IMG/VR virus record: IMGVR_UViG_3300025154_000073
Coordinates: 9,045 to 73,044 of that record
Source: a virus
Strand: one strand, 5' to 3'
Length of the DNA: 64,000 nt
Below, one piece after another: positions 14,570-37,626 of the stretch (its first letter is position 1; each line of letters opens with the position of its first letter). The position numbers were made by a program, and so were the translations under genes. The notes beneath the pieces were generated by a model that was given only the letters and a program-made list of their open reading frames with translations, was not told the DNA's origin and searched no databases.

Positions 14570-14824
14570 TTATTTCTCCATTGCTCGGCGTTCTAACGGC
14601 GAGCGTGAGCAGCGCAAGCCAAGCCAAGATAATTGCGCCAGCCACCACGTGGCGAAGCGTCCGCTGCACGCTTTGGTAGAGGGCGGGTACATTTCTTCCC
14701 ACCACGTATATTTCCACTCGTTATAAACACGCCACAAATCCCAGGCGTGAGTAAATGCCTGCTCATGCCTATCGCATAACTCGCAAGTTCGATTGTACGG
14801 ATTTCTGTATTTCCATTTGTGCAT
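14570..14824 (-). CDS. Small Cys/Trp-rich cassette protein
   Basis: Second copy at 63118 differs mostly at synonymous sites, supporting coding function. Confidence 0.6.
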   Translation of the reverse strand: MHKWKYRNPYNRTCELCDRHEQAFTHAWDLWRVYNEWKYTWWEEMYPPSTKACSGRFATWWLAQLSWLGLRCSRSPLERRAMEK

Positions 14825-14837
14825 AGTAGCCTTCTAA
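14597..14837 (-). mobile_element. Integron-like gene cassette A (ORF 14570-14824, MHKWKY...)
   Basis: Starts at G|TTAGAAGGC; attC-like site 14591-14681 with left arm CTCTACCAAAGCGTGCAGCGG and right arm CTGCTCACGCTCGCCG|TTAGAA; one unpaired C in the left arm. Confidence 0.75.
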
Positions 14838-14977
14838 CTATGATTTGACCAATTCTTGTCCGACAAAAATACTTATATCAAATAAGGCAAGAGCAGGAAT
14901 ATTTGACGCCATATTGTTATTATAAGTCTTATGTGGGGATTTATGGTGAGAATTAGATTAGAAAACACGGTGTTTAC

Positions 14978-15304
14978 TCAACGTTCCTTATTCCTCTTTT
15001 CTGCTTCCTTCCAAATTCTAAGCCACGTTTCTCCGTGACAATTCTTTTCACCAGCCTTGCACCAGCAGGCGATGTGTTCAATCTTGTCAACCACGCATCT
15101 TTCCAAAAACTCGTTGATAAGTCCAACCTGTTCGGGTCTGCGTATCCACTCATCAAAAATAGCTTTCTGTTCCGCCTTTGTCTTTTTCTTCTTTCCGACA
15201 TAATTACCGAAGTGAGTTCCCCTTGTAACCGTAAGCGTGTTCTTGGGTATTCTCTCGCCTGTCTGCCGACTTCTTGAAATTCTATTCATTATTTTTCTCT
15301 CCAA
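14978..15304 (-). CDS. DUF4326-like protein
   Basis: VTRGTHFGN...IACWCK...CHGETW motif. Confidence 0.65.
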   Translation of the reverse strand: MERKIMNRISRSRQTGERIPKNTLTVTRGTHFGNYVGKKKKTKAEQKAIFDEWIRRPEQVGLINEFLERCVVDKIEHIACWCKAGEKNCHGETWLRIWKEAEKRNKER

Positions 15305-15588
15305 TATAGGCTTAGTCCAAAACTTCTCGCTCCAGTCTTCCAGAATCCGAAGGTTGTAATCTCCACCCTGCCCTTCACCATCTTTCTGATGAAAGAACGC
15401 AGGAAGGACAGGGCTTTGTTGTGAAGTGACTCAACCATTATTCCCCTCAGTCAATATCTCGGCTTGATACGCAATGTCCAATAAAACGGCATTCCTAAGT
15501 TCAATGTAATTGTCCTGCGTTATCTCCTCACGCATCATGGCGCGATACATATTTGTCAATATATCTTTGGCTTCATCCACCAGTTCTT

Positions 15589-16593
15589 TCATGCCCTCAC
15601 CGCCATATTCACAGCATTTCTGAATTTGAACCCCAACAATATTGCATCATCAAATTTTTCGTTTCTAGGAGGAATAACCAATCTGCACCTTTTCTCTCCA
15701 ATCTGCTTTGCCGTGTTCAATACAGCTACGACTCCATTGGGCTGTTTTACATAGGCGTCGGGGTCAAAGGCTAGATAAAAAATCTCTACGTCTGAGTCTG
15801 CAAGCATCTTCAATATTCTTTTTTCTGGCATTGAGGATTGTACACCGACTACCTGAAATTCAGATGAGAGTTCTCCCCATATCTCGGTAACGTCGGCTTT
15901 CTTCTCGCCCTCCATTACCACAACCTTATTTGACAATTTCCCGTTTTCATGCAGGGGAACGTATAAGTGCTGGCATCCAGATTTGTATAGATTTCTGTAT
16001 CGGTCATTTGAGTTGGCGGGTTTAACAACGCGCAGTTTTACATTTTCAATTCGGTTTCCGAGTGTCCATATCGGGAAGGTGAATGCAGAGTTGTTATAGG
16101 TGGACAAACTTCCACGAACCTTATAATCTTTGATATATCCCTTTTGAAGATACTCTCTCCAATTTGGGGGAACTCCAATAGACTCGTAATACATATTTGC
16201 AATTTCGTTATCCAATCCGTCCTCGTAATATCTTTTGTAAAAACCTTGTTCCTCGATGGTTCTGGAGAGTTCCTCAAGTTCTTTGGATTTCTTTTCAAAA
16301 TATTCGCGTTCAAGTTGGACAACCTTTAATCTAAATTCTTCGCGCTCTTCGGAAGTCCATTCCGCATCTGATTTTTCTGGAGACCATTTATACCCACACT
16401 TGCGGCACAATCCAAAGGGAACTCCTCTGCGTGACGCAATCCATAAAACAAATCTATCTGAACAAGTACCATCTTCGTGAATCTCGCCACCACAAGAAGG
16501 ACAAGACGAATGGAATTCGTTAGGGGTTACTTGAACTACAAAAGATACCTTGCCTTGAAGAGATGCGAAGATTGGGGGAAGTAGATCGATCAT
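15589..16593 (-). CDS. DNA primase (zinc finger plus TOPRIM)
   Basis: CPSCGG...DRF...CRKC; MEGEKKAD; AFDPD. Confidence 0.8.
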   Translation of the reverse strand: MIDLLPPIFASLQGKVSFVVQVTPNEFHSSCPSCGGEIHEDGTCSDRFVLWIASRRGVPFGLCRKCGYKWSPEKSDAEWTSEEREEFRLKVVQLEREYFEKKSKELEELSRTIEEQGFYKRYYEDGLDNEIANMYYESIGVPPNWREYLQKGYIKDYKVRGSLSTYNNSAFTFPIWTLGNRIENVKLRVVKPANSNDRYRNLYKSGCQHLYVPLHENGKLSNKVVVMEGEKKADVTEIWGELSSEFQVVGVQSSMPEKRILKMLADSDVEIFYLAFDPDAYVKQPNGVVAVLNTAKQIGEKRCRLVIPPRNEKFDDAILLGFKFRNAVNMAVRA

Positions 16594-17585
16594 TTTACAC
16601 CTATTGGCTTTAGATAGATTTGGTCGTGAAATTTCTTGTCATAAATAAAAGAACCGCTTGGGTCGATGTGGCAGGGAAACACTCTTCCAACAACATCTTT
16701 TTCCCCAACAAATCCCATTTCCTCAGCATTACGACGTTTAACTATTCTAACAAATACCAAGTTAGGTTCAACCTCGAAATTCCAATTACCTTCTTCTACT
16801 CTTGAATACATGGGGTGATCGTGCTTGGGTTGCCAGTAGGCATATACAATGTCTGGAATGGAATAAAGTTCCCCAGCCTCCGCAAGATCAGCCGCTCCAG
16901 GTATCCTCATTTTCTGCGTGTAGTTGTCTCTTTGAGTCTTCAATAAGGCTTGACTCGCTAATCCAATAGGACACTTAAACTTCTTGCAGGCGTGAAAAAG
17001 CCTGAGAACATTGTCGGCAGTTTGTAATCTCTTCTGGTCATTATTGGTCATCATCCTACGTTCAGGGTCGGGAGGAATAATTTGGGCATAATCTATTCCA
17101 ATGTGAGTAAATTGCATTTTGTCCGCAAACTTTTCATTTGCTCCAAATTCAAGGGTCTTGATGATGTTACCGACATTTAGCTGAGCCATGTCATCCATTG
17201 ACATTCCAAACGAATTGCCAATAAAAATAAACTGGTCATCCTGATAAGCAAGCGAATCTCCGCCATACTTCTTGACCTGCTTTCCAGCAGTTCCTTCGGA
17301 AGTGTCCTCAAGGCTTACCAGACCCACCAACGTCCCCTGTTTACCCTCAATTCGTTTTTGTGCCTTGAAAGTTACATCACGCAAGGCGGTAGATTTACCT
17401 TGATGGGATTTTGCGGCATAGATGGCAAGCTCGCCTGGATACTGGTCTGGGACAATACCCTCAAGCCCCTCGATGTGGAACGGAAGGGCAAGGTGAGAGT
17501 TCTCTTTCAAAAAAATGTCGTAGGCGACTTTGTCTTCCCAAGTTTGTTGGGCAGTTTTTACGAAGTTGGCGGGTTTGAATGTCAT
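16590..17585 (-). CDS. DnaB-like replicative helicase
   Basis: Walker A AAKSHQGKS, SLED, IDYAQII, ASQ, KRRN. Confidence 0.8.
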   Translation of the reverse strand: MTFKPANFVKTAQQTWEDKVAYDIFLKENSHLALPFHIEGLEGIVPDQYPGELAIYAAKSHQGKSTALRDVTFKAQKRIEGKQGTLVGLVSLEDTSEGTAGKQVKKYGGDSLAYQDDQFIFIGNSFGMSMDDMAQLNVGNIIKTLEFGANEKFADKMQFTHIGIDYAQIIPPDPERRMMTNNDQKRLQTADNVLRLFHACKKFKCPIGLASQALLKTQRDNYTQKMRIPGAADLAEAGELYSIPDIVYAYWQPKHDHPMYSRVEEGNWNFEVEPNLVFVRIVKRRNAEEMGFVGEKDVVGRVFPCHIDPSGSFIYDKKFHDQIYLKPIGVK

Positions 17586-17605
17586 AGAGAATGCACCGTG
17601 TTTTC

Positions 17606-18172
17606 TTAGTAGCTCAGTGGGATGTCGTTTGCGTCTTTTTTCTTTTCAACCAATCTGTTATTGGCTTCTCTTAATTCTCTTGCCTTTGCCGCGCACATAT
17701 TAACCAGACTGGTTGGTTTTGCTACTGTGTATGGCGCAAGTCCATTCTTAAACCCATTTTTCCAATCGGCATGAACTTTGATAAGTACTTCAACTCCGAA
17801 TTCTGCACAATTTTGTTTTATAGCTTCCATTGCTTGAATGTAAAACGCATATTGTCCCTTACTTTTTTTATGCGGTTTAGACGGAAGCGAGAACATCCAA
17901 GTATCACGAAGGACACGAGCAATTTCCTGTACCGACTGAGGATAGTCTTTGTAATCTCCTCTAAATAATTCTACGTTGTATTCTCCCGCCATCTCGTCTG
18001 TTTTCCTTGCAATTCCAGAAATCCCCATCACGGCATCAACAAGCAGTTCTGACAATCGTTCATAATTTTCTTTATATGGACTTTCGCATTCTAATCCATC
18101 AGAACAAAATATTGCCTCGTGTTTTAGAATATTTTCAAATTTCAATTTTAATTCTCTACGCAAAGTTGTCAT
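17606..18172 (-). CDS. Hypothetical protein, possibly replication initiator/loader
   Basis: GGAGG RBS before ATG 18172; directly upstream of helicase and primase. Confidence 0.45.
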   Translation of the reverse strand: MTTLRRELKLKFENILKHEAIFCSDGLECESPYKENYERLSELLVDAVMGISGIARKTDEMAGEYNVELFRGDYKDYPQSVQEIARVLRDTWMFSLPSKPHKKSKGQYAFYIQAMEAIKQNCAEFGVEVLIKVHADWKNGFKNGLAPYTVAKPTSLVNMCAAKARELREANNRLVEKKKDANDIPLSY

Positions 18173-18195
18173 TCTTCCTCCTGCGAAAACACGGT

Positions 18196-18492
18196 TCATT
18201 CTTTTTTGGAAGGCTTTGCAAACCACTTTATTTTGTGGCCTACAAGTTTCATATGCTCTACTCTGTGCTTCTTTGCATTCCAACGGTCTAAAGATATTCC
18301 CAACAACTCTGTCAAACCCATAGGAATAGGGCCTCCGAAAATTCCAGGAAATCCATCGGTGTCAATTTTGCAATCATAGCACCATATCTTATGTTCATAT
18401 TCAGACCACTCAATATTTGTGCCATTGCATTTGTCACACGTGATGCAATATTCGTACGGGTGCATAATATAATGCCACGTTCTTTTTCTCAT
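18196..18492 (-). CDS. Zinc-ribbon hypothetical protein
   Basis: CDKC...WCYDC; AAAGGA RBS. Confidence 0.55.
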   Translation of the reverse strand: MRKRTWHYIMHPYEYCITCDKCNGTNIEWSEYEHKIWCYDCKIDTDGFPGIFGGPIPMGLTELLGISLDRWNAKKHRVEHMKLVGHKIKWFAKPSKKE

Positions 18493-18836
18493 TCTAATTC
18501 CTTTCTGATTATTTTATGACAGAATCATCCTAAGACTTCCTAATTAGCCACTCAGATTCTTTAAAGAACCTCTACCCTATTAGGGTCAAGTAGGACTATT
18601 CATCCTGGACGTGGGCGGATTTATAACGGCGTACCGTCTCACCTTTCGGGATTCTCTGTTAGAGACACCCGCCCCGCCTGCCTCTGTGCTTTGACGCGGG
18701 GACGTTGTTGGGAGTCCTGCCACTCGGTTACTTAGTAGGCAGACTGCAATCTCTTTATCGTATGAGAGCCTGTTTCGCTCAAAAATGTATTTTCGGATTA
18801 GGCAGGATTGCTAGTTGCTGTTCCGTTAAACGCAAA

Positions 18837-19032
18837 ATCCAGTTTTGACAACTGCGGCTCTGGCGGCTAAAAGAACTACCGCTCGCGCGGATATGGAAGG
18901 GATACCATAGCCGCAGTTGTCAAAACTGGATAATGTCGAAGTTAATATGTTCATTTGTCCTTTTAGCCTTTCGCGCTTCCACACGCTTTTCCTTACTCAC
19001 CCAATAGTAATCTCATCCTTGACGGATGTCAA
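18837..19032 (-). promoter_or_regulatory. Sigma70-type promoter and structured leader with 23-bp perfect inverted repeat
   Basis: TTGACA-17-TACTAT on minus strand; arms 18837-18859 and 18909-18931; loop segments complementary to 18960-18981. Confidence 0.65.
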
Positions 19033-19196
19033 GTTAAATCAGACAGGTCTTTTCTATTCTTTTTGTCTTTCCACATCTCTCACAGACATAGGTTTCGGAG
19101 AACTCCGCATAATATCCGAAGCCAACGTACCTGAACTTACCCATCCTGAATGTGAATGTATGACCAAAAAGAAAACACAGTGTTTTGTTTAGCATC

Positions 19197-19454
19197 TCAT
19201 TCCTCTTTAGGTAATATGGTCACAACTGTTCCGCGCATCCCATCATAGACGACTCTTATACCATCTACAATGTGAACTGACACGCGGTTGGATTGACGCT
19301 CTACGAACTGAGAACGTCCCGCCCTGATTGCTTTTGCGATGGCTTTTACATCCACGATCCTACCGAGCCGTTCTTGGGAACGTCTGCGGGCATGAGACAT
19401 TTGTGCATTAGCTTTTATGGATAGGTCAGGATGTTTAGATTGATAGAATGACAT
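19197..19454 (-). CDS. Small basic hypothetical protein
   Basis: HARRRSQER...VVYD...VVTILP, resembling DUF4258/RelE-like small folds. Confidence 0.5.
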   Translation of the reverse strand: MSFYQSKHPDLSIKANAQMSHARRRSQERLGRIVDVKAIAKAIRAGRSQFVERQSNRVSVHIVDGIRVVYDGMRGTVVTILPKEE

Positions 19455-19479
19455 AAATACACCGTGTTTTCTAGCCCAA

Positions 19480-19753
19480 CGGTTATGAGTTAGTGGTTTG
19501 CCGTATTACCGAATTGACAATGTTTGCTGTGGATTCCGTTTACTTCGCAACCACAGACAGCGCACAGTATAGGCACATCCGCTGCACGCTTTGTTAGGTG
19601 CGCTTGAAGTTGCGCCACTAACTCAGGCAAAAGGGAATTAGGAATTTTTATATCTCCAATTCCTTCATACCAAAAACCTGCTTCTTTTCTGACTTCAATT
19701 AGCAGGTATTCTTTTGTTGGACAAATTTTTATATTTTGCATATTAGCACCCAA
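19480..19753 (-). mobile_element. Integron-like gene cassette C2 (ORF 19490-19741)
   Basis: Starts G|TTGGGTGC; own left core GCACCTAAC is near-complementary; attC-like site 19474-19599 ending ACCG|TTGGGC. Confidence 0.75.
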
Positions 19754-20022
19754 CGGTTTGCGTAACCCGCTTTATGCAGGCGAAGTATCTTCAACTTTCA
19801 CAGATTCGGGCAGGCCCAAAACGCCAGCCTTCAAGGAGTCGAAGCTGGGTTGGGCGCAATTCCAGACACGCAGGACAATCAACATCATTCCATCCAGTGC
19901 TTGCAAAACTCCAACCAGTGCTACCACATACGGCGATTGTTTTTGTATATGGCACAAGAAATTTTTTTACATGATGACAAGTAGGCATATCTTATCCTTT
20001 CGGTTTCAGGGCTTCCGCCCAA
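19754..20022 (-). mobile_element. Integron-like gene cassette C1 (ORF 19791-19988)
   Basis: Starts G|TTGGGCG; own left core CGCCCAAC is the exact complement; right arm TTACGCAAACCG|TT; left arm degenerate; site 19748-19855. Confidence 0.6.
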
Positions 20023-20077
20023 CTATGATTTATAAAGTAACCGCAATACGGAAATCATTTAAATAACACGATGGTTT

Positions 20078-20115
20078 GCAGGGCGTACTCAACACTCTTA
20101 TCAAGTACGCCCTGC
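20078..20115 (-). terminator. Hairpin downstream of ssb
   Basis: GCAGGGCGTACT / AGTACGCCCTGC inverted repeat. Confidence 0.55.
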
Positions 20116-20120
20116 GCCAA

Positions 20121-20528
20121 CTAACCCGTCATGTATTCTGGCAAATCTTCTTCCTCGGAGGATGCTTGACTTTCTCCGCCAGATTTGCTTGAAAGAAACT
20201 TGACCAGAGAGGCGTTGATCTCAAGGGTTGAAGCCCAAGTTCCATCGCTCTTTTCAAAGATGCGTGGATTTCCTGTCGCTTTGTCAATAGAGACCTTGCC
20301 CTCAACGAACACCAAAGAGCCTTTATTCAGATACTTCTTGCAGGCTTCCGCCGCACTCCCCCAGATTGACACCCGAAACCAAGTTGTTTCTTTTACGTGT
20401 TCTCCGCCTTTGGTATTGTATTCGTTTGTGGTGGCGACTGATAAATTGGTAACAGGCTGACCGGATGGGGTATAGCGCATGGACGGATCAGCACCTAAGC
20501 GCCCGATAATTTCTATTTTCTGATACAT
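20121..20528 (-). CDS. ssb: Single-stranded DNA-binding protein
   Basis: IGRLGADPSMRYTPSG, TTWFRVSIWG, KGSLVFVEG, acidic tail. Confidence 0.9.
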   Translation of the reverse strand: MYQKIEIIGRLGADPSMRYTPSGQPVTNLSVATTNEYNTKGGEHVKETTWFRVSIWGSAAEACKKYLNKGSLVFVEGKVSIDKATGNPRIFEKSDGTWASTLEINASLVKFLSSKSGGESQASSEEEDLPEYMTG

Positions 20529-20529
20529 A

Positions 20530-21174
20530 CTACGCCTCTTTCTTCATCATGGCGTCAATCTCTGCCATCTTCTCTTTGATAAATTCGGCGGTTGAATCTC
20601 CGCTGATTTTGGGAACGTCTTTTATTCCGGCTTGATGCGCGGCGGCGAATTTTTCTCCAAACGCTTTTTGCAGGGATTGTAATTCGCTGGCTGGCTTTGG
20701 GGTTTTTAATTCGGGCTTGGGATGTTCCACAAGTTGTTTTGAGGGGCGTTCCTGGTCTCCAGATGGGTATTTATCTGGGTCGTCTCCTGTTTCAATATTG
20801 AAAGTTTGGCGAATGGCATACTTATACATGCCCGTCATTGCTTTGTTGCAACTCTTATCTCCGCTGTCTGCCCCCTCGCCTAGTGATTGAACATCAATAT
20901 AGCTTCCGCCAACGTGGGTAAATCTCACAATTCCGTGAACGGTGGTGTTAATCATCGCCGTTCCTTTTGCGGTTGTGTATTGCTCTCTGTTTGTCTCGGC
21001 AACTTGAAGTACGGAGACATACACTCCATGTTCAACCATTGACGGGCGAACCGCCTCAATCAATGCCGCCTCGCCTGCGTATGAGTATGATAGTCCCGCT
21101 CCCCTCTGTTTTTGAACATATCCCACTTCTTTCATTATTGCATTAATCGCTTCGTGAATATCTTTTTCTGACAT
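20530..21174 (-). CDS. ERF-family single-strand annealing protein
   Basis: GEGADSGDKSCNKAMTGMYKYAIRQTFNIETGDDPD. Confidence 0.8.
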   Translation of the reverse strand: MSEKDIHEAINAIMKEVGYVQKQRGAGLSYSYAGEAALIEAVRPSMVEHGVYVSVLQVAETNREQYTTAKGTAMINTTVHGIVRFTHVGGSYIDVQSLGEGADSGDKSCNKAMTGMYKYAIRQTFNIETGDDPDKYPSGDQERPSKQLVEHPKPELKTPKPASELQSLQKAFGEKFAAAHQAGIKDVPKISGDSTAEFIKEKMAEIDAMMKKEA

Positions 21175-21263
21175 TTCTACTCCTTGTTTTAGGTTACACC
21201 GACATTTGTCGTATGTTTCAAAAATTATTGTACATCAACTACCTGAGAATGGGGTGAGAAATG

Positions 21264-22031
21264 CTATTTCTTCAATTCTCCTTCCCATAAGATACCATCC
21301 TGACCATGAAGCCTCCATAGTTTTCCGTCAAAGGATGGGACTAATCCCACATTCCATAAATCAACTGCTGGTTGATATGGATACGTCTTTTTCCAATCTT
21401 TTACAATGGGCACAAAAATACTGACCGTATAAGCCCACACAGAATCTCTCACAGAATCTCTCACAGAATCCCACACAGAATTCCACACAGAATTCCACAC
21501 AGAATTCCACACAGAATTCCACACAGAATTCCCCACAGAATTCCCCACAGAATTCCACACAGAATTCCACACAGAATCTCTCACAGAATCTCTCACAGAA
21601 TCCCACACAGAATTCCACACAGAATCCCACGCTTTAAGCAATTCCAATTCCTTTGAACTGATTTTCCCATGTTTTAATGTAAATGGATTTAGTGGGCTGG
21701 CAGCTTTCAGATAATCCCATTTGAATAACGTTTCTGGTTTTACTTCCCGTTCTATTCTCAAGAATTCAAATCCCGCCTTATCCGATTCTTCGAGTACTGG
21801 AGTTCCATACACGATGTACGCAGAACATGGTATGGATGCTCCGATAAAGCATTGATCTGGTTTTCGGCTGGCGTGAAGAAACGCATTTGAACATAACCTT
21901 CCAGTTTCGGAGAAATGTGGTGCGTACACATCCCACCCGACACTTTCTCGGTAGTTTATGGTTTTTCCTGTGTAAAAGTCAAAACCATCTGGTCTTGCGA
22001 GTTTGTAGAACTTTTGTAGTTTTGTTTTCAT
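21264..22031 (-). CDS. Tetrapeptide-repeat protein (16 x [WRG][ND]SV), paralog 1
   Basis: Central repeat tract; C-terminal QPAVDLW..GLVPSFDGKLWRLH shared with 24043-24861. Confidence 0.75.
   Translation of the reverse strand: MKTKLQKFYKLARPDGFDFYTGKTINYRESVGWDVYAPHFSETGRLCSNAFLHASRKPDQCFIGASIPCSAYIVYGTPVLEESDKAGFEFLRIEREVKPETLFKWDYLKAASPLNPFTLKHGKISSKELELLKAWDSVWNSVWDSVRDSVRDSVWNSVWNSVGNSVGNSVWNSVWNSVWNSVWNSVWDSVRDSVRDSVWAYTVSIFVPIVKDWKKTYPYQPAVDLWNVGLVPSFDGKLWRLHGQDGILWEGELKK
21434..21628. repeat. 12-bp tandem repeat, 16 units
   Basis: Unit CACAGAATTCCA and variants. Confidence 0.95.
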
Positions 22032-22043
22032 GTTATTTTCTCC

Positions 22044-23506: not shown

Positions 23507-23522
23507 TGTATATACTTCAAAC

Positions 23523-24025: not shown

Positions 24026-24042
24026 AATGTTCTCCTTTTCTC

Positions 24043-24861
24043 CTATTTTGTACATTCAAAGACGATCTCGGCATTTTTCCCTGAGTGTAATCTCCATGTT
24101 TTTCCATCAAACGATGGCACAAATCCTCGCTTCCATAGATCAACACAAGGCTGAAATTCATAATTGTTATCCCAAATATAAAATAAACTTCCGATGTAAG
24201 CCCCCACAGAACCCCCCACAGAATCTATCACAGAATTCCCCACAGAATTCCACACAGAATCTCTCACAGAATCTATCACAGAATTCCCCACAGAATTCCC
24301 CACAGAATTCCCCACAGAATCCCACACAGAATTCCACACAGAATTCCCCACAGACCCCCCCACAGAACCCCCCACAGAATCTCTCACAGAATTCCACACA
24401 GAATCCCACACAGAATTCCACACAGAATTCCACACAGAATTCCCCACAGAATCTCTCACAGAATCTCTCACAGAATCCCACTGCTTTAATAATTCAATGT
24501 CTTTTTTTGTGGGCTTTGATTTATTGGCTAGTGGATTGATTGGATTTTGCGCTTCCTTGATATTAATTAATGGATATACCTCCTTTTTCCACTTCTTAAG
24601 GGAGCGCAGAGCCTCTGCTGAGTGTGAAGCAGACCACCATGACGGAATATCTTCTTCATCAACATTCAATGTCCAATCGCAATCTGGATATAAATATCCT
24701 TTATCTGGTGTGATCTCCACCTTTACGGAATTTCTAGATGCTTCTTTCAGTTCTGGGTACTTAGACAGATATCTAGAATACAGCGTGTCGTGAGAGGAAA
24801 TGCCGCGCTCCCAAATTACTTGGTGACTTCTTGTTACAATACATGAAAAATCTTTACACAT
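24043..24861 (-). CDS. Tetrapeptide-repeat protein (23 x [WRGI][NDG]SV), paralog 2
   Basis: MCKDFSCIV...SHD...VEITP N-terminus; repeat tract; conserved C-terminus. Confidence 0.75.
   Translation of the reverse strand: MCKDFSCIVTRSHQVIWERGISSHDTLYSRYLSKYPELKEASRNSVKVEITPDKGYLYPDCDWTLNVDEEDIPSWWSASHSAEALRSLKKWKKEVYPLINIKEAQNPINPLANKSKPTKKDIELLKQWDSVRDSVRDSVGNSVWNSVWNSVWDSVWNSVRDSVGGSVGGSVGNSVWNSVWDSVGNSVGNSVGNSVIDSVRDSVWNSVGNSVIDSVGGSVGAYIGSLFYIWDNNYEFQPCVDLWKRGFVPSFDGKTWRLHSGKNAEIVFECTK
24205..24480. repeat. 12-bp tandem repeat, 23 units
   Basis: Same unit family as 21434-21628. Confidence 0.95.
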
Positions 24862-25961: not shown

Positions 25962-26178
25962 TTAAGCCTTGTTTCCTTTACTAGAATTCTCGGACGGTTC
26001 ATCCCCACGTGTGTGGGGAATACCATGGCAGGAATATAGTCACTGTCTCTTGACACGGTTCATCCCCACGTGTGTGGGGAATACTTTTACAGTACGGATA
26101 AAGACCATCCCTATGACCTTTGCTTTTGTGAAATTCCGAATAGTCTTTATCTTGTAAACACTTTTTGCATTTTTTCAT
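25962..26178 (-). pseudogene. Disrupted HNH-like endonuclease gene (N-terminal 26085-26178 and C-terminal 25962-25994 remnants)
   Basis: GGAG RBS then MKKCKKCLQDKDYSEFHKSKGHRDGLYPYCK runs into the repeat; after the other repeat the frame reads SENSSKGNKA-stop. Confidence 0.65.
25995..26084 (-). CRISPR. Type I-E-like mini-array: two identical 29-bp repeats and one 32-bp spacer
   Basis: Repeat GTATTCCCCACACACGTGGGGATGAACCG (minus) at 25995-26023 and 26056-26084; spacer 26024-26055; 61-bp period. Confidence 0.9.
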
Positions 26179-30108: not shown

Positions 30109-30634
30109 TGTCGTATCTCCTGTTGTGTATGTGGTGGTGATTAGTCACCTGTGTTTGATTGACTACATGATACACTATATCGTATAGTAATACAATAGAT
30201 ATACCCTTACTCTAATCTAACTCTAATCTAGTGTTCTAATTATGTTCTAAGCGCATAGATATAATATATTAGCTCATGTGTTCTAACCCAGGGTCATAGT
30301 TAGAACAGGCGTGCTAATATTCTGCGGACGCTGAGAGTTCGCATAGGGTATGCACAGTCAACAAAGTAAATCGTTTGGTCTTTTGAAATGCTTCCCCCTA
30401 TACGTACTATATCAAGAAGATGTCTGTAAGATCAAGCCACGCTTGGTTGAACTTCCCGTGTAATAGATTGTCGAGCGCGTGAAGCATTAGTTCTGAGTGG
30501 CTTGGCTCGTATTGTAGGGAGTAGTCTGGATGTGATGCACCAGCAAGAACCATTTCCCCACACAAAGGACAGTGAAATTGACCAAGCGGAACATCAACAA
30601 GGTCGGATGGGTCGTAGATGCATTTATCCATTTA

Positions 30635-30907
30635 TTAGCCACCATATTCCAGCACATACTTTTTAGCAGCTTCTTTTGAGACATACTTGTCATCCCAGTC
30701 AAGATAGATTTCGCCTGGAACAAGATCAATTAACTTGCAAATGATTTCCTTTTGCTCTGGCGTATCATTTTGAGTCATCGCAGACATGGAATAGCCTAAC
30801 TCGCCATACTTTTCAAGCAGGGCTTTCCCTTCTGCACTTGTGATGCTCCACGATTTCAGCGTTCCCCATTTTAGAGTAATATAATCCTGCTCGGTTTCTG
30901 TTCCCAT
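30635..30907 (-). CDS. Hypothetical protein
   Basis: AGGAG RBS; LKWGTLKSW motif. Confidence 0.55.
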   Translation of the reverse strand: MGTETEQDYITLKWGTLKSWSITSAEGKALLEKYGELGYSMSAMTQNDTPEQKEIICKLIDLVPGEIYLDWDDKYVSKEAAKKYVLEYGG

Positions 30908-31039
30908 CTTTTTCTCCTATATTGCCCTACTTCAACGGAATACTAACACACTCTTATGGATATGGTATTGTTTGTTATCCATCAGCTTAAAAAAAACACC
31001 ACCCTACGAGCACTAGGGCTCCTCAAGTGGTTCTTAATT

Positions 31040-31068
31040 ATTATATGTTTTCTCTTAAAAATTGTCAA
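31040..31068 (-). promoter_or_regulatory. Consensus sigma70 promoter
   Basis: TTGACA-17-TATAAT on minus strand; palindrome TTAGAAT-AGGT-ATTCTAA at 31075-31092 just upstream. Confidence 0.8.
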
Positions 31069-31200
31069 GGCCTTTTAGAATAGGTATTCTAACTCTGTAA
31101 GGTGTGAAAATTTACAATTCATCTTCTTCTCCTGTAATTTTTATGTTTGGTCTTGGGGAAACGCTTTCCCTATACCGTCTAAACCCGACTCCATTTGAGC

Positions 31201-31548
31201 TTACTTTACGCGAGCGCCTGCAAAAACATAAGCATATTCTTTTTCTGATACCCGCCTTTCGAGAATATACACAAGCACAAAGATAGGCATAATTTCAGAC
31301 GGGTCAATTTTCTGGCTTATGTTGTAATTCATTTCAGGCGGCACGGCAAACAATAACTCTGGCGCGTAAGTGCTGGATATAACTGTTTTGGCAAGTGCGC
31401 TTTCTCTTGCTCCAATATCACACTTTATTGCGGCTTCAAGTATTTGGTTGGACATTTCCCCGAACTCTTTAAGCACCATCAACAGTACGACTACGATAAA
31501 GGGGACTCCAATAAGAATCAGGATGGTAGCCAGGACTTCAAGTTTCAT
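31201..31548 (-). CDS. Membrane-anchored hypothetical protein
   Basis: N-terminal TM segment. Confidence 0.5.
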   Translation of the reverse strand: MKLEVLATILILIGVPFIVVVLLMVLKEFGEMSNQILEAAIKCDIGARESALAKTVISSTYAPELLFAVPPEMNYNISQKIDPSEIMPIFVLVYILERRVSEKEYAYVFAGARVK

Positions 31549-31557
31549 CTCTACTTC

Positions 31558-31878
31558 CTATATCACTTCTTCATCCGCGAGGATGCCCAGGATGGATAAG
31601 ATCAGTGTGTGAGAGAAACCGCGCAGGCTTCCACTCATCTTCTCAAGTAGGAGGGAGTGCGCTTTCCCCTCTACGAGCATACTTGCCAGCACAACATTCT
31701 CAATAACGTCAATTACGTTTACAAAATCATTCTCGTCCATCTTGCTTAGAACAATATCTTTGCCGTTGTCAGTCATTTTGTCGAGGTATTCCCTGATTTG
31801 GTCAACCTCGTCGAGGTCTTTCCCGATATTGCCCATACTTACGTTTTCATAATACTTTAGTAATGCCTGTACGTTCAT
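31558..31878 (-). CDS. Hypothetical protein
   Basis: AGGAG RBS. Confidence 0.55.
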   Translation of the reverse strand: MNVQALLKYYENVSMGNIGKDLDEVDQIREYLDKMTDNGKDIVLSKMDENDFVNVIDVIENVVLASMLVEGKAHSLLLEKMSGSLRGFSHTLILSILGILADEEVI

Positions 31879-31911
31879 GTTATTTTCTCCTATGGTTAGA
31901 ATACACGGTGT

Positions 31912-32647
31912 TTACTGAATGCGCCTGATGGTGATTGAAGGCGCGCCCTCAGTATAGCAATTCTTTATGTCAGAGTGGGTTTCTGTGTAAATCGTCCAAC
32001 TTTGCGGGTATCCATATTTTTCTAGGCTTCCCGTAAATCGCGTGAAAGAATTTCCCTTTTACGCCTAAATCTTTGCATTTTGGATTTTCTTTCAACTTCT
32101 CGACAACGTGTTTTTTCATGTCATCTTTAATCTCGGCTTCGAGCTTCTTGATGTTCTCGTCAACATCTTCGGATTTGCCAGAGAACTCGGCTTCAATTTC
32201 AAGTTTGCGTTGCGCGATTTGGGCGTACACATCTTTGGTCTGTTGTTCGATTTCTGCTTGCAAAGCCCGTTTCTGGATTACAAGAGCCTCAGTTGCGATG
32301 TTTTCGTTTTCTCGTTTCTTAGCCACAATTGCTTGGCGTTGTTTCTCAATATCCGTAAACTTAGCCATTAGTTCTGTGCGTTGTCGGTCTATTTCTGCAA
32401 GCGCGATCTTGAATTCTTCCGGTACGACGATCTCCGCGATTTCCTTGTCAACATCCGCGTTGAACGCATTGATAGCCGCACGAGTCTTTGCTTCAAGTTC
32501 GGACGCCTGTTTCATCCCGTTACTGACAACAATCTCAATTTCGGCAGGAATCTTAACTTCGTCAAGAAGTTTGCTTTTGTCAAGTTCGAGCAAATCTTTT
32601 TGTGCGTGGAACTCAGCAAGCAGGTCTAACTTTTGTTCGATTTCCAT
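31912..32647 (-). CDS. Coiled-coil protein (Gam/Gp157-like), apparently frameshifted near its 3' end
   Basis: Long heptad region; natural-looking tail YTETHSDIKNCYTEGAPSITIRRIQ-stop lies in the adjacent frame. Confidence 0.55.
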
Positions 32648-33535
32648 TTTTATTTTCTCCTAAATACACGGTGTTTTCTCAAGATACTGCCCCGCCGCTC
32701 TGCAACCTTTCGCCAGAAACTTCAACATCGCGAGCAGATATTCGGACACGGCGGGGATGAAATCGGGCGGGAGGCGCGGGGAAAACTTAATTTCCACTCC
32801 ATAATTCACTCATTCTCGGCTCGGATTGCTCCGCCGCCCGATATTCATTTGGTAAAGGTTGAGGCGGGACACGTGGGCTAGGACACAGCCCGCCTCCGAT
32901 CTTATGTGCAGGCACATGTTTTATCGTTGTTACCTAGTCTGCGCCGGATTTTATTACCGGCCTCTTTTGATAAAATATTGAAGTAAAGTTGCTGTCTCTC
33001 CAAGCTGTCAAGCCTTCTGTCTAATGCTCTATTGGTTGTACTGGGCTTTCTCTACCGCAATTACACCTCAGCAATCGGGGCGGCATACTTCTGTCACAGT
33101 TGCGCCGCATTCATCGTATCTATTGTGACAATGAAAAATCTTATAAGGGTTCTGCCCAGCCGTCCTGCTTCTCAGTCAGGCTTGCGCCACCGGCTTACAC
33201 ATGTTTGTTATCTGTGCGTGCGGTACAGGGACCGGCTGGGGTGCTCTAAAACGAGTATCGGTTCGGTATTTAGCCTGCCGATATTGTTATCGTCCACTCG
33301 TAATATTCTGTTTGCCCCGCCGCCAGTTAAGCCTAACTGATTTCACCGACTGGACAGCAACGACGGGGACTTTGATCGTGGAGAAGTCTGCTAATCAGGC
33401 TTCAAGCGGATAAAGGAGATACCGAAAACCGCCTTAGAACTTCTCCATTGAACAGGGCTACCCGTTCAATAAATATATCTTATCACAGTCTTGAAAAAGT
33501 ACATTAATATAAGCTAAGAATTGCCTAATTTTCGG

Positions 33536-33988
33536 CTAAGTGTTTCTATATATTTCTCTTTTATCCGATTTTATGGTGAAATCCAGGATTATATGCAGGG
33601 CATCAGAAAGGCATATCCCTACGAACCATTGACCGAATTTATCGGGCAAGTGCGCGGGAAGTCCGAGGTAATTTAGTATAAGTATGGGCAACGCCAGGTA
33701 TCCTACGCGCAATACTGTACCAAAAAAGATGCTGTGAGATATTACGCTTCGATGTTTAACGATTTTAGAGTAGGGTAGCCAAAATACGCGCCATGCAAGA
33801 GATAGAGGTTTACCAATTATGGGGATTCGCCTGAGATGGTGAAGTCCCAAAAAACCCTCGTCAATATCCAAGTCCGGCGAGAGGATTAATCCAGACAGGA
33901 TTCCAACGGTAAGGGCTGGCTCGAAAGCACAAACGCTTCCTAAAGCCAGCCCGATTGTAGTCATTGAATGCGTTTTTCCAGAAGGCAA
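33536..33988 (-). CDS. DUF2227-like putative metal-binding membrane protein
   Basis: MPSGKTH, LSPDLDI, WLPY..VKHRSVISHS, DALHIILD. Confidence 0.75.
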   Translation of the reverse strand: MPSGKTHSMTTIGLALGSVCAFEPALTVGILSGLILSPDLDIDEGFLGLHHLRRIPIIGKPLSLAWRVFWLPYSKIVKHRSVISHSIFFGTVLRVGYLALPILILNYLGLPAHLPDKFGQWFVGICLSDALHIILDFTIKSDKREIYRNT

Positions 33989-33991
33989 ATT

Positions 33992-34189
33992 CTACTCACT
34001 CAATCCATATTTGAAAAATAGAACCAAAAACAACACAACCAGGATAACTAGAATCTGGATGAGCAGAACACCCGCCGCGATTGTTCTTCGAGCCAGTTCT
34101 ATCTGCTCATCAGTCCATTCGGGAATGCTTGGCTTTACGGGGACTGCGTATAGATGCCCGTCAGAAGTTCTAAAGTAGTCGTATTTCAT
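33992..34189 (-). CDS. Small membrane protein
   Basis: C-terminal TM helix. Confidence 0.5.
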   Translation of the reverse strand: MKYDYFRTSDGHLYAVPVKPSIPEWTDEQIELARRTIAAGVLLIQILVILVVLFLVLFFKYGLSE

Positions 34190-34524
34190 TTTTCACCACA
34201 CAGATATTTGGCACGAACGACGCCCGATCCGCCTTCAAAAGTTATCCGATACCACATATTGCCATTTACGTCATACAGTTTCTCAATTATCTCGACTGGC
34301 GTTCCGTCCGCAAAAGGCTCTTCGCGAACTAAAGGGAAAGACGTACCCGCGCCTGTGCGGATGTTCAACCCGTAAGAACCACAAACCACCATTTCAACCA
34401 TTGGTTTGACTGTTTGTTTGGCAGTTCCTCCAAACTGTGAACTATTAGCACTTTTGGGCAACGTTGAGGCAACCCCGCAAGCCAGGGAAGTAAGAATTAA
34501 CAAGACCATCAATCGGTTCATCAT
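34186..34524 (-). CDS. SH3b-domain lipoprotein
   Basis: Lipobox-like SLAC; LNIRTGAGTSF...WYRI...GVVRAKYL. Confidence 0.7.
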   Translation of the reverse strand: MMNRLMVLLILTSLACGVASTLPKSANSSQFGGTAKQTVKPMVEMVVCGSYGLNIRTGAGTSFPLVREEPFADGTPVEIIEKLYDVNGNMWYRITFEGGSGVVRAKYLCGEK

Positions 34525-34820
34525 ATTTTGCCTGTTTTCAATTTTGAATGGTTTACTCGTTTGCTGTTAGCGCGTTCCACTAACCACTCCGCCAATACAG
34601 GTTTCCAACTCTCCCAAGCGTCAGGGTTGTTGGTTTTGCTGATTGTGCAAACGGTCAGAGGATATTTACCGCGTTTTACGATCACAATTGAACGTGGAGG
34701 ACTACCAACTGCAAACCAGCGCAAGTCTTTCCAGTCGCCAATGTGGGCTTCGCTGGCTATCTCGGTTAGCAGTTGTGTTTCTCGAACCTTTGGGATGGGC
34801 AAGGCAATGGGTGTTTGCAC
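34521..34820 (-). CDS. Hypothetical protein
   Basis: Coupled ORF. Confidence 0.45.
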   Translation of the reverse strand: MQTPIALPIPKVRETQLLTEIASEAHIGDWKDLRWFAVGSPPRSIVIVKRGKYPLTVCTISKTNNPDAWESWKPVLAEWLVERANSKRVNHSKLKTGKI

Positions 34821-34834
34821 TACTAATTCCGTTG

Positions 34835-35545
34835 TTAGTTCCCATTGCCGCGAGTTTTTGTTTTGTTTGCAATCGCCTCGAATTCGTCAATTGCCTTATT
34901 CTGACCCATTTGCGCGCCTTTTTCGCCGTACAAACGAGCAAGCTCTGCGTTTCTGCCCTTCATCACAATTTTCTCGCCTTCGATTTCGGCAGTACGCTTA
35001 TCCCTTGTTAGTTTCCTTGTTTGTTCCCTAAAATCGCGCTCCAGAGCCGCATCGGGGTCGTTTCGTCTGTATTGCCAGTCCGCGTAAAGGTGTCCGCCCG
35101 CTAACACAAAGATGCAAACAACCGCTAATAAACCTAAATACACTTCCATATTTGGGATGGTCAGTAAATATGCCATATCGCTCTGGGCTATTTCGATTGT
35201 CGCTCCCGCTAACATGGTCAACACGGAAGCCGAGAGGGTCAAATATACCATCGTGTTTGCAATTGACTCTTGTTTGTTTGTGTTAGTTCTGCCATCGTCA
35301 ATTGGGTCTGCTTCATATTCCCGCCAACGCCAATAAAGATAACCTCCCTCCATCAAACAAACGCCTAAGGCGGGAAGCCATAATGCCCACTTGGGAGCAA
35401 ACGTTCCAACTAAAAAATATGTTTGCGTGCTACTAACACCCAGAATAACTACCGTCATCCAATGGTCAACCAAAAAACGACCAAACCTTACCGCTTGTAT
35501 TTTTGCTTTTTCTAAGGCGTCCATCATTCCTCCGTCTGTTTCCAA
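34835..35545 (-). CDS. Multi-pass membrane protein with C-terminal coiled coil
   Basis: About four hydrophobic segments. Confidence 0.6.
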   Translation of the reverse strand: METDGGMMDALEKAKIQAVRFGRFLVDHWMTVVILGVSSTQTYFLVGTFAPKWALWLPALGVCLMEGGYLYWRWREYEADPIDDGRTNTNKQESIANTMVYLTLSASVLTMLAGATIEIAQSDMAYLLTIPNMEVYLGLLAVVCIFVLAGGHLYADWQYRRNDPDAALERDFREQTRKLTRDKRTAEIEGEKIVMKGRNAELARLYGEKGAQMGQNKAIDEFEAIANKTKTRGNGN

Positions 35546-35745
35546 GTGCTGTTTGGGATTACTATGTTTCGAACTCCATCATGCTCCAGAAGTCCATCTG
35601 TTTCCAAGCTATCAAGAAGATACTTCATCACTGACTTTGAGGTTATCTTGCAAGCCATCATAATTTCATCATACGATGGACTGTTGCCGTTGTGTTTCTT
35701 TTTGTAATCAATGACGAATTTTATGATTCTACTTTTATCAAACAT
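35524..35745 (-). CDS. LexA-like N-terminal winged-helix DNA-binding protein (no peptidase domain)
   Basis: IIKFVIDYKKKHNGNSPSYDEIM...SKSVMKYLLDSLETDGLL...RNI matches the LexA DBD pattern. Confidence 0.75.
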   Translation of the reverse strand: MFDKSRIIKFVIDYKKKHNGNSPSYDEIMMACKITSKSVMKYLLDSLETDGLLEHDGVRNIVIPNSTWKQTEE

Positions 35746-35759
35746 ACTCGCTCCTTAGT

Positions 35760-35887
35760 GAACTTTCGTTCTATTCTAATTCCAAAGACTCCAGCCGTCA
35801 AGGGAAAACACGGTGTTTATTGCTATTCCAAACACTAATAAATTTCTCATATAAAACCCTTGCGCTTTTCCTTATATCGTATATACT
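35760..35887. promoter_or_regulatory. Divergent control region: SOS-type box, leftward promoter, 19-bp palindrome, rightward promoter
   Basis: GAACTTTCGTTC 35760-35771; minus TTGACG-17-TAGAAT 35773-35801; palindrome 35803-35821; plus TTGCGC-16-TATACT 35860-35887. Confidence 0.7.
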
Positions 35888-35907
35888 TATGGAAAGGATA
35901 AAAAAAG

Positions 35908-36279
35908 ATGATAGCTGTGATTAAATATGACGGAAAAAAGATTTTTGAAAAGTTTATGCGAATGGGCGCGGCATCCAGTATGCCCAAGATTCGCAAATGG
36001 CTCAGGACGGAGGAGAACATAACCGTCTCCCAGATGGGTCCAATCTGGGCAATGTGGAAGTACGCCACCCAGAACCCGGAAGAAGCGTTTCCCCTCTACA
36101 AGGTTTGGCACTTTGAGTATTGGTCAAACGTGAGTGTTATGGGAAAGATAATCGACTCAAACGCAACCTTTGAATCCTTCTTAAAGGATTGCCAGTATAG
36201 AATCAAAAAATCTGGCGATTCAATAATGAGCAAAACCGCATATAAAAGGTTTTGTAATAAGTATGGTCTTGAGGAGTAA
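35908..36279 (+). CDS. Hypothetical protein, first gene of rightward arm
   Basis: AAGGA RBS. Confidence 0.55.
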   Translation: MIAVIKYDGKKIFEKFMRMGAASSMPKIRKWLRTEENITVSQMGPIWAMWKYATQNPEEAFPLYKVWHFEYWSNVSVMGKIIDSNATFESFLKDCQYRIKKSGDSIMSKTAYKRFCNKYGLEE

Positions 36280-36289
36280 AGAGGGTAGT

Positions 36290-36625
36290 ATGCCTAAATA
36301 CGATCTAATTGAAGCGGAGATACAATGGTGCGAGACACATCGCAATCCTGATGATCCTGAGCAAACGATCTACCAAGATGGTTTTGTTGCTGGTTTATAT
36401 CAGGCACTTTGGCTAATGAAAAGTAGACAAACAAACGAAAATTACATTCCGAAAGATAAAGATGCCGTTATTCACCCAGATTGGTATTCTCTCGCGCTTT
36501 TGAAGCGCATTGAATTAACCAATTCGCAAATTGATACTCTGTTGAAAAATGAGTTGTCAACGAGAAGCAGAAAAAAAGTGTTGCAATATTTTAGGGCGCG
36601 CAAAAAGCCCCGCAAAGGAAATTAA
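36290..36625 (+). CDS. Hypothetical protein
   Basis: GAGG RBS; followed by a degenerate attC-like element (about 36636-36755). Confidence 0.5.
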   Translation: MPKYDLIEAEIQWCETHRNPDDPEQTIYQDGFVAGLYQALWLMKSRQTNENYIPKDKDAVIHPDWYSLALLKRIELTNSQIDTLLKNELSTRSRKKVLQYFRARKKPRKGN

Positions 36626-36749
36626 ATGAAAAAATTCAAAGCCGTGCCAGTGGCACACAGTAAAGATGATTTGGGCGGGTACAGGCGGGCATGCGGGGTG
36701 GTGTGAATTGGAAAAGTATTGGGTGGCACTTCGCCAGTAACGCAAACCG

Positions 36750-37125
36750 TTCTACCGCACTTGCAAACAAAGGAGTCTTATGACTAAGAAATTGAAACTT
36801 GAGAATACAGAGCGTGGCTTTGCTAGGTCAGATTTTGATGACCTATATGGTAGTCATTGCTCAATTCAGGAAAGTAGCCTTGCCACAGATAATGCAATCT
36901 GGCTTGGCGTGCATGAAGGTTCGGCGCAATATGACAATAAAGAAAGTTCTCGTATGCACTTGAATCAAGAACAAGTAGCGTCATTGCTCCCGCTTTTGGA
37001 GCGTTTTGTGAAAACTGGTCGCCTTCAAACGAGAAGGCGATAGAACACGGCGTGCAACGGATTTGCTTTACGGGCTGGCAAAATCGGGAGCAATGACACA
37101 ATCCGCAAACCGCTCACGCAAACCG
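36750..37125 (+). mobile_element. Integron-like gene cassette D1 (ORF 36780-37043)
   Basis: Starts G|TTCTACCGC; own left core GCGATAGAAC matches its complement at 9/10 and contains the ORF stop; attC-like site 37040-37131 ending CCGCTCACGCAAACCG|TTCGGC. Confidence 0.8.
36780..37043 (+). CDS. Conserved phage-type hypothetical protein (cassette D1 cargo)
   Basis: TERGF...FDDLYG..CSIQESSLATDNAIWLG...RMHL motif. Confidence 0.7.
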   Translation: MTKKLKLENTERGFARSDFDDLYGSHCSIQESSLATDNAIWLGVHEGSAQYDNKESSRMHLNQEQVASLLPLLERFVKTGRLQTRRR

Positions 37126-37397
37126 TTCGGCGGACACGCCCAACGCCCAGAAGGAGAAAAATGTTAGAACTGTTTTTGTCTGCTCTCGAAGATCAACTAG
37201 GTCTTATTGTAGACCCTCCATTAGCTCCTATTGCCCGCATGGGTATTATCAGCCAAGAAATCACCCGCATAACATCCAGCGGGCTAACAAAGCGTGCAGC
37301 GGATGTGCTGGAAGTCTGCGATAATTTCAAGAAAGCACGCGATGGTAAATGTTTCAACTGCGGTCACGCGGAATCCGTACACCGCTAGCGCAATCTG
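37126..37397 (+). mobile_element. Integron-like gene cassette D2 (ORF 37161-37388)
   Basis: attC-like site 37282-37403; left arm CTAACAAAGCGTGCAGCGGATGTGC is identical over 25 nt to that of cassette C2. Confidence 0.7.
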
Positions 37398-37626
37398 TTG
37401 ACGTGGTACAATAAAGAAAACACGGTGTTTACTATGAACATAACCCTTGACATTAAAACCTTGAGAAAATTGGCGAATAAGAACTACACGCCTCTTATGG
37501 AAATAAATTTTGAGAACGACGAGGAAATTAAGTTTATTTACTTAGAGCCTGATTACGGAATGTGGGCACAAAAAGAATATGTATATCAGGACTTCGAGAC
37601 TGGACTAAAAGAGGAAATACTCAGAC

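Follow-up and report, generated by a model that had tools for sequence, protein, structure and literature searches.

The stretch of viral DNA analyzed here, called the window, comprises 64,000 nucleotides (bases 9045–73044) of the linear 73,044-bp IMG/VR virus record IMGVR_UViG_3300025154_000073, for which CheckV gives a completeness of 81%. It contains integron-type gene cassettes, small units that are bounded by G|TT and carry attC recombination sites. Four of these attC sites belong to a homogeneous family of sites of chromosomal integrons in Anaerolineae and related Chloroflexota, and one cassette, D1, moves as a G|TT-bounded unit. With a probability of about 80%, the units are real integron cassettes of this Anaerolineae-type family, which were inserted into the phage genome by the integron integrase (IntI) of the host acting in trans and have been eroding since. 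That IntI inserted the cassettes, and that the enzyme was the host's, we infer from the features described below.

The 73-kb record encodes TerL (large terminase), portal, endolysin, a DNA methyltransferase, SSB, an ERF recombinase and glycosyltransferases. Judged by TerL, portal, endolysin, SSB and ERF, the cassette loci sit in a real phage. An earlier note on this DNA, made from the letters alone, had seen no integrase, and the whole 73,044-bp record indeed gives no match to PF00589 or TIGR02249 (tyrosine recombinase, IntI) at E ≤ 1; the record being 81% complete, its unseen part could hold an integrase.

Base-by-base reading of the sequence locates the G|TT points at 14838|14837 and 14597, at 20023|20022, 19754|19753 and 19480, and at 36749|36750, 37125|37126 and 37397. 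These are exactly the unit ends given in the earlier note. The several separate loci described there, oriented with local transcription, were likewise recovered: all five units hold one open reading frame (ORF) each, on the same strand as the neighbouring genes. In locus A, cassette A (14597–14837, minus strand) reaches from the TT of G|TT to the G of the attC R' box, and its ORF (14570–14824) runs on through the attC site. Locus C is formed by cassettes C1 (19480–19753, minus strand; ORF 19490–19741) and C2 (19754–20022, minus strand; ORF 19791–19988), and locus D by cassettes D1 (36750–37125, plus strand; ORF 36780–37043) and D2 (37126–37397, plus strand; ORF 37161–37388). In addition to these units, which were all in the earlier note, the window holds a second copy of cassette A, here called A2 (62954–63131, minus strand; 62954–63133 in the alignment with A). 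A2 stops right after the attC left arm, where it meets the stop codon of a convergently oriented GT2 glycosyltransferase gene (PF00535, E 1.9e-18). Directly upstream of it lies an attC right-arm remnant (63132–63143, minus strand), which reads ..CTCACGCAAAAG|TT; the arm variant ..ACGCAAAAGTT of this remnant is also present in viral sites of two collected loci, L008 and L054.

The left-arm motif AAAGCGTGCAGCGG occurs exactly four times in the window, at 14661, 19579 and 62955 on the minus strand and at 37289 on the plus strand. With up to three mismatches, this 14-nt motif gives 10 matches, compared to 3.57 expected, and none of 100 shuffled sequences reaches 10. Taken alone, the right-arm motif is less strongly enriched (4 matches with up to two mismatches versus 1.29 expected; 4 of 100 shuffles reach 4). 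Sequence reading also confirmed that R'' is complementary to the first bases of its own cassette in the four units for which this had been claimed, with 9 of 10 positions in D1, 8 of 9 in C1 and C2, and 7 of 9 in A, while D2 follows with 6 of 9; for C2 the downstream core matches R'' as well as the own start does (8/9). The core form RYYYAAC / G|TTRRRY is found in C1 (ACCTAAC / GTTGGGC) and C2 (GCCCAAC / GTTGGGT), and D1, D2 and A are off at one or two positions.

Sites of the same kind were collected from viral and bacterial sequences. When viral contigs were scanned with 16 nt of the left arm, 76 stretches came up, many of which represent an unrelated conserved gene that contains the 16-mer. 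The full layout, written as a regular expression (..YYAAC, left arm, stem, loop, stem, CCGCTAACGCAAACC, GTTRRRY), is present at 27 viral places, two of which were judged spurious by eye. In a collection with one genome per prokaryote species, an 18-mer scan yielded at least 120 stretches. Among the 120 matches listed, 74 titles are Chloroflexota-type (Chloroflexota, Anaerolineae, Anaerolineales, Chloroflexia etc.), 17 are unclassified and 29 carry other labels, the latter being a mixture of chance matches and binned short contigs. From the bacterial matches, 77 complete sites of mostly about 133 nt were extracted, and the 74 distinct ones, mostly from metagenome-assembled genomes (MAGs) of Chloroflexota and Anaerolineales, were aligned. 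RNAalifold predicts for this alignment a 15-pair hairpin which joins both arms, with compensatory changes at 6 of the 15 pairs, and a 2-by-1 unpaired interruption is seen in all 74 family sites.

A covariance model built from this bacterial alignment alone (R1; 74 sites) was run against the window with filters off. It finds four of the five proposed attC sites at 37.9–57.1 bits (E 5e-7 to 2e-11). The highest score belongs to the site of D2 (37280–37405, plus strand; 57.1 bits, E 2.3e-11), in which no broken consensus pair is marked. The site of A (14589–14683, minus strand) reaches 40.6 bits (E 1.3e-7); its R'' reads ..ACC instead of ..AAC, a change shared by A2. The site of D1 (37038–37133, plus strand) scores 39.2 bits (E 2.8e-7) and that of C1 (19472–19601, minus strand) 37.9 bits (E 5.4e-7); of the 15 consensus pairs, two are broken in D1 and three in C1. 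The attC of C2 is degenerate; its right arm alone (19746–19779) is recognizable, with 13.9 bits and E 0.15. The five attC-ended units of the earlier note therefore stand for four sites (E 2e-11 to 5e-7), while C2 retains only a right-arm remnant. Fainter matches fall on the left arm of A2 (8.3 bits) and on an attC right-arm remnant upstream of D1 (36701–36751, plus strand; 7.7 bits, E 4.1), where the right-arm motif is present with one mismatch at 36739–36751. No further R1 site at E ≤ 0.01 was detected in the whole 73-kb record, and weak matches at 17534–17554 and 41747–41781 (E 0.5–0.7) were taken as chance. Rfam gave no window match at gathering scores; since an E-value scan of L319 and L046, two loci with strong family sites, also returned no attC family, Rfam seems not to model attC and its blank result is uninformative.

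In bacteria, the attC family is associated with IntI. The curated cut-off of TIGR02249 is exceeded in 2 of 5 bacterial genomes with the family and in 47 of 151 sampled genomes from the class of the Anaerolineales MAG G003. The canonical integron layout is present in L197, where a family attC on the other strand is separated from the start of intI by about 870 nt, and an IntI homologue is encoded beside family attC sites in L149 and L136. Of the seven bacterial loci with two sites listed, six have a second-site R'' that exactly equals the reverse complement of the first-site R'. D1, C1 and C2 in the window carry the same signature of R'' and own start. Two loci with the family bear labels outside Chloroflexota, namely L149, a contig of 7.4 kb from a bin with the label Hadarchaeota, and L101, the complete genome of Ca. 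Brocadia pituitae. The IntI of L149 is 70% identical to that of a Chloroflexus MAG; mis-binning or a real spread of this integron type could underlie the two labels.

Other viral records share the family as well, and IntI was found in none of ten. Four of them, searched whole with R1, contain 6–8 attC sites each (30 sites, 22–74 bits). These attC-rich records include a 56-kb record with terminal repeats that is rated 100% complete, and one rated 99%.

The most direct view of cassette mobility is offered by D1. Its product belongs to phrog_3849 (E 2e-25), a family with 40 relatives in a large protein collection and a relative in 93 of 178 candidate viral stretches. A family attC is present within 2.5 kb in 2 of 80 viral loci encoding D1 relatives and bounds the gene in neither. 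Among 24 metagenome loci with close relatives, a single one is R1-positive. Since R1 matches are confined to 2 of 80 viral and 1 of 24 metagenome loci, phrog_3849 is usually not a cassette; D1 represents an ordinary phage gene family, which is found here inside a cassette. The positive metagenome locus is L319 (2185 nt; 98% identity of the D1 protein), which holds four family attC sites of 49.9–74.1 bits. D1 aligns to positions 444–845 of L319 with 90% identity over 404 columns. In the pairwise alignment, the homology extends from G|TTCTACCGC to ..CCGTT, and the flanks are unrelated except for the family consensus of the upstream arm. In the L319 copy, the match between R'' and the own start is perfect (10/10) and the left arm is better, and its attC scores 49.9 bits; the window copy has one change in each. 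Moreover, contigs from X5, X7 and X10 (three runs, at least two studies) match the window from 36732–36737 onward and have three different sequences upstream.

The A/A2 pair adds a boundary within the genome. Positions 14660–14839 and 62954–63133 are 96% identical over 180 nt, and the identity begins at G|TT, which is preceded by ..AAATCATAG at locus A and by the attC right arm ..ACGCAAAAG at A2. D1 hence moves as a G|TT-bounded unit, and A is bounded by G|TT at its 5' end. The G|TT boundaries proposed in the earlier note are borne out at both ends of D1 in the comparison with L319 and at the 5' end of A.

The cargo of the remaining cassettes is less familiar. The product of cassette A has a weak HEWD match (PF20576, E 1e-3, under the cut-off), and Pfam and PHROGs hold nothing for the proteins of C1, C2 and D2. 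Protein searches gave three proteins for A and two for C1. No other copies of C1, C2 and D2 were found, and tblastn of the cargo proteins against the loci collected first gave no match. The claim that the cassettes carry phage early genes is accordingly supported for D1 by its relatives in 93 viral stretches, and the other cassettes are without such support. A search of viral contigs gave no close relatives of SSB or of the cassette A protein that would allow the flanks of loci C and A to be compared.

At loci A and C alike, the first cassette comes after AAATCATAG|TT, with the core ATAG|TT. Among 30 loci that offer 150 nt or more of sequence upstream of intI, 16 show the pattern ATAG|TTRRV in the 450 nt before this gene, at a chance expectation of about 0.02 matches per locus; in the set gathered after the motif had been noticed it was found in 14 of 22 loci. 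A wider head pattern gives ten matches in nine viral loci. Eight of the ten precede the first attC of an array by 145–597 nt, lie on its strand and have no attC further upstream in the locus, the exceptions being L004 (minus strand) and L208. The head of locus A (14836–14850, minus strand) reads ..AAATCATAG|TT.., and its 13-mer core is also found upstream of intI in L198. The head of locus C (20021–20051, minus strand) reads ..TTTATAAATCATAG|TTGGGCGG.., and a similar 43-nt stretch across its G|TT heads an array of eight attC sites in the provirus record L032. A 25-nt attI matrix built from 16 intI-adjacent sites ranks the locus C head first in the whole genome (15.5 bits, next match 8.5 bits), a score that lies within reach of shuffled genomes (mean top score 12.8, maximum 19.7 bits) and at the low end of the leave-one-out range, in which 14 of the 16 true sites reach 16.5–33 bits. 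The head of locus A is outside the top eight genome matches of this matrix, which gives it no support. A 42-nt attI matrix was dropped, as the window heads ranked 6th and 7th, under the maxima of shuffled genomes. Position and the group pattern, and not matrix scores, thus suggest that both heads are attI-like.

Six viral loci encode a TerL relative of 46–89% identity, and none of them has a family attC (R1, E ≤ 0.1). The cassettes are therefore an addition in this lineage, and they have entered a spot that is generally variable. Genes matching 35908–36279 and 37627–38151, which flank locus D, are 1357 nt apart in the window, as compared to 71 to about 850 nt in four of the six relatives. The intervening content is nothing in L205, a small gene in L206, a methyltransferase-like gene in L203 and an exonuclease-like gene in L204, the last two being named from motifs read by eye.

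The present state of the sites suggests that they are now decaying and that the cassettes are being domesticated. Signs of this are a truncated copy (A2, which has lost the right arm of its attC), a lost left arm (C2), poor folding and two translated attC tails. The R1 scores of the window sites (38–57 bits) fall into the lower half of the 30 scores from the four viral records searched whole. The ORFs of C1 and D2 cross the left arm as ..LTKRAAD.., continue into a Cys/His-rich tail and stop in or near the right arm (19490–19600 and 37280–37388). Translated attC loops with CxxC..CxxC or Cys/His tails are also found in 6 of 104 family sites from outside the window (L033, L047, L053, L066, L069 and L195; five of them viral), where the ORF passes through the left arm (..TKRAAD.. 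or ..QSVQRT..), a mini-domain lies in the loop, and the stop is provided by TAA in the right arm. Cassette A reads the same left-arm DNA in a different frame (..TKACSG..), which places the conservation at the DNA level; a shared protein domain, considered for the motif that lies inside ORFs, was dropped for this reason.

Several observations weigh against the proposed origin by host IntI. Folded as single-stranded DNA, a check suggested in the earlier note, the bottom strands of the four sites show no advantage over dinucleotide shuffles (z +0.56, -0.71, +0.43 and +1.13), and a second shuffle set gave -0.13 for D2, -1.36 for A, -0.04 for D1 and +0.53 for C1. Among comparison sites the corresponding median is -2.84 in bacteria (75 sites) and -3.01 in viruses (25 sites), with about 80% below -2; these sites were selected for having the exact left arm together with a regular right arm and are thus biased to intact sites, which overstates the contrast. 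In the minimum free energy (MFE) structure, A (18 end-to-end pairs) and D1 keep an end-to-end hairpin, and D2 and C1 lack one. To this are added the ACC in R'' of A and the homology of A and A2, which stops just after the attC left arm, where IntI does not cut. Part of the R1 score reflects the motif itself, because the training sites share the exact left-arm 18-mer that three window sites partly carry; D1, which is without the exact motif, still reaches 39.2 bits. The TerL relatives (71–88% aa identity) are without cassettes, but the divergence of their intergenic DNA is too great to show an empty site at base level. Neither the host nor its IntI was observed directly; both are deduced. Finally, excision joints were not seen, a weak negative, as contigs only were available; in runs X7 and X12 some window bins are without cover, and with contigs only this gives no evidence on excision or absence.

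Poor folding and a truncated copy count against an actively shuffling system. Current shuffling of phage genes by an integrase, as claimed in the earlier note, was not borne out, given folding at shuffle level, the lost left arm of C2 and right arm of A2, and contigs that show no excision joint. A low-depth X10 contig (depth 3.5) joins 32661 to 19581, in the attC left arm of C1, with 11 other letters between the two; it may derive from a relative of this phage in which an attC adjoins the palindrome at 32.6 kb.

According to the preferred scenario, host IntI would act in trans on phage DNA during infection and recombine the folded single-stranded attC of a circular cassette with an attI-like or secondary G|TT site. 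The targets would be intergenic DNA in blocks of early and accessory phage genes, and later cassettes could be added by attC x attC recombination. After insertion, attC sites would erode and the cassettes would become domesticated. Both ends of this path have precedents in 10.1101/2022.09.11.507474, where IntI insertion at genomic GWT sites gives rise to single sites or small attC clusters without integrase, and domestication of genome-inserted cassettes with loss of attC is anticipated. ERF, a single-strand annealing recombinase, and SSB are encoded at 20121–21174, directly upstream of locus C, and could be a source of single-stranded DNA and recombination activity near the cassettes.

The same two genes also fit an alternative that we consider unlikely, in which pieces of a host integron (attI with the first cassettes, or array segments) were captured as blocks without IntI, whether through illegitimate or homologous recombination or by way of another phage, and the G|TT ends were inherited from the donor. 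Such a capture would account for the attI-like sequence preceding both first cassettes, as if attI had travelled along, for the 43-nt stretch that locus C has in common with the array head of L032, and for the end of A2 at a point where IntI would not cut; off-target homologous or illegitimate recombination has been raised for integrase-less attC clusters of phages by Qi et al. (PMC9892861). However, none of the three loci retains an intI remnant or another bacterial gene, and all are intergenic inserts of one or two cassettes that are co-oriented with the phage genes. Moreover, cassette A is found behind two kinds of site, attI-like and attC arm, which is the outcome of site-specific recombination and not of a single block transfer.

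Translation of the left arm bears on another explanation, by which the repeats would be regulatory hairpins (terminators or attenuators) or a protein-coding module spread by phage mosaicism, and no recombination sites at all. The occurrence of ..TKRAAD.. inside the C1 and D2 ORFs together with the Cys/His tails, the similar loops in 6 of 104 sites from other sources and the weak folding of the window sites agree with it. It is nevertheless highly improbable, being already largely refuted by the different frame in A, by R1 matches that connect the sites in sequence and structure to IntI-linked bacterial attC arrays, and by the movement of D1 as a G|TT-bounded unit. An assembly chimera, in which bacterial integron fragments were joined into a phage contig via shared repeats, is slightly more improbable still. 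Six chimeric joins would be needed for three loci, each of which is flanked by phage genes on both sides; two independent contigs from runs of other studies, 19129–20779 from X5 and 19317–20531 from X10, span locus C without a difference, and an X5 contig spans 36961–38521 on the D2 side with five other letters. What recommends the chimera is that the record is metagenomic and that attC repeats are abundant in the same samples, with many loose ends at attC arms. Insertion by host IntI accordingly remains the preferred origin of the cassettes.

Sedentary chromosomal integrons are known for homogeneous attC sites, as exemplified by the Vibrio repeats. The bacterial relatives of the window sites form arrays of this type, in which near-identical attC sites of about 133 nt, with R'' complementary to the own start, lie beside IntI. 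The window differs in having only four recognizable sites and no IntI, in being part of a virus, and in its shorter or translated loops. A likeness also exists to the promoter-stem-loop (PeSL) regulatory cassettes, whose exchange is thought to run by homologous recombination at repeated promoters and which reportedly shuffle small genes in T4-type phages, an account attributed to Arbiol et al. in 2010. In both cases, repeated structured DNA delimits small accessory phage genes, which are reshuffled between genomes. Here, in contrast, the repeats are attC sites of a tyrosine-recombinase system, and the boundaries fall at G|TT to the exact base.

The closest published counterparts are the clusters of attC sites without integrase (CALINs) described in phages by Qi et al. 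in 2023 (PMC9892861). That study reports 17 CALINs, some with co-oriented arrays, gives the R' box as G|TTRRRY, shows recombination by IntI1 for five of six phage attC sites tested, and proposes exchange between the cassette pools of phages and bacteria. Since integrase-less attC clusters in phages were thereby already published, the high novelty implied in the earlier note is not supported: phage CALINs have been a known kind since 2023, of which this phage is a clear and well-supported further example. Shared with the published cases are attC-bounded cassettes in phage genomes without intI. Locus D has two sites 147 nt apart and a remnant, locus C one site and a remnant, and locus A one site, which agrees with the definitions of a CALIN (clustered attC sites) and a SALIN (a lone attC); no integrase, and hence no complete integron with intI beside the array, is present in the record. 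The phages of Qi et al. infect other hosts (Tetrasphaera, Pseudoalteromonas, Polaribacter, Vibrio and others), and the string 'Chloroflex' does not occur in the main text of PMC9892861, supplementary tables lying outside this search. The window differs further in a single homogeneous host-type family arranged as singles and pairs over three or four loci, in two attI-like heads, in one cassette duplication within the genome, and in sites that look eroded. Literature searches at the level of listings found no paper on Chloroflexota phages with attC arrays.

Single or paired cassettes outside an integron, at a short G-W-T site, are also the subject of 10.1101/2022.09.11.507474 on SALINs and small CALINs. 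There the insertions lie in bacterial chromosomes, whereas those of the window lie in phage DNA and have heads with the ATAG|TT core that precedes intI in this bacterial class, not an arbitrary GWT.

Megablast of window positions 14000–22000 against deposited phages gave no match; the metagenome runs compared with the window are from groundwater and soil. At 25994–26084, the window contains a mini-array of two identical 30-nt type I-E-like CRISPR repeats, 61 nt apart, and no cas genes were seen. The repeat matches arrays of 61-nt period in 7 of 151 genomes from the class of G003 with up to three mismatches, and a reversed control gave none. Because the CRISPR repeat and the attC family both point there, the host group is probably the Anaerolineae.

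Three further features of the window stand apart from the cassettes. The palindrome AAAACACGGTGTTTACT is located just 5' of gene starts on both strands at no fewer than 13 places (e.g. 14962–14981, 37417–37436 and 38154–38173) and also precedes the matching small gene in the TerL relative L204; it is probably an operator or promoter element of the phage. A repeat of 12-nt period forms two long runs inside minus-strand ORFs (21342–21702 and 24097–24505), which probably encode repetitive, collagen-like or similar protein segments. In the late region, three consecutive glycosyltransferase genes (GT4, GT4 and GT2; 59960–62953) adjoin the truncated cassette copy A2.

Altogether, the window represents a modest and partly decayed cassette set, the particular value of which lies in the base-exact boundaries of D1 and A and in the attI-like heads. 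It joins the integron-cassette phages, of which few are so far on record, as a well-documented case with cassette boundaries exact to the base, and it ties a group of uncultivated groundwater phages to Anaerolineae by two independent signatures, the attC family and the CRISPR repeat. A more far-reaching idea, possible although rather doubtful, is that short attI-like landing pads with the core ATAG|TT, kept among the early and accessory genes, allow Anaerolineae phages to tap host IntI for a trade of cassettes from phage to phage, and that the window shows such a system running down. The goods traded would be phage genes such as phrog_3849 and small Cys/His-tailed proteins, drawn from a pool on the phage side and not from stray bacterial cassettes. 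The phage-family cargo of at least one cassette, in combination with the attI-like heads, hints that integron recombination may move genes from phage to phage, and not only from bacteria to phage. If the landing-pad idea is true, these phages would maintain a cassette pool of their own that works through a bacterial recombinase.

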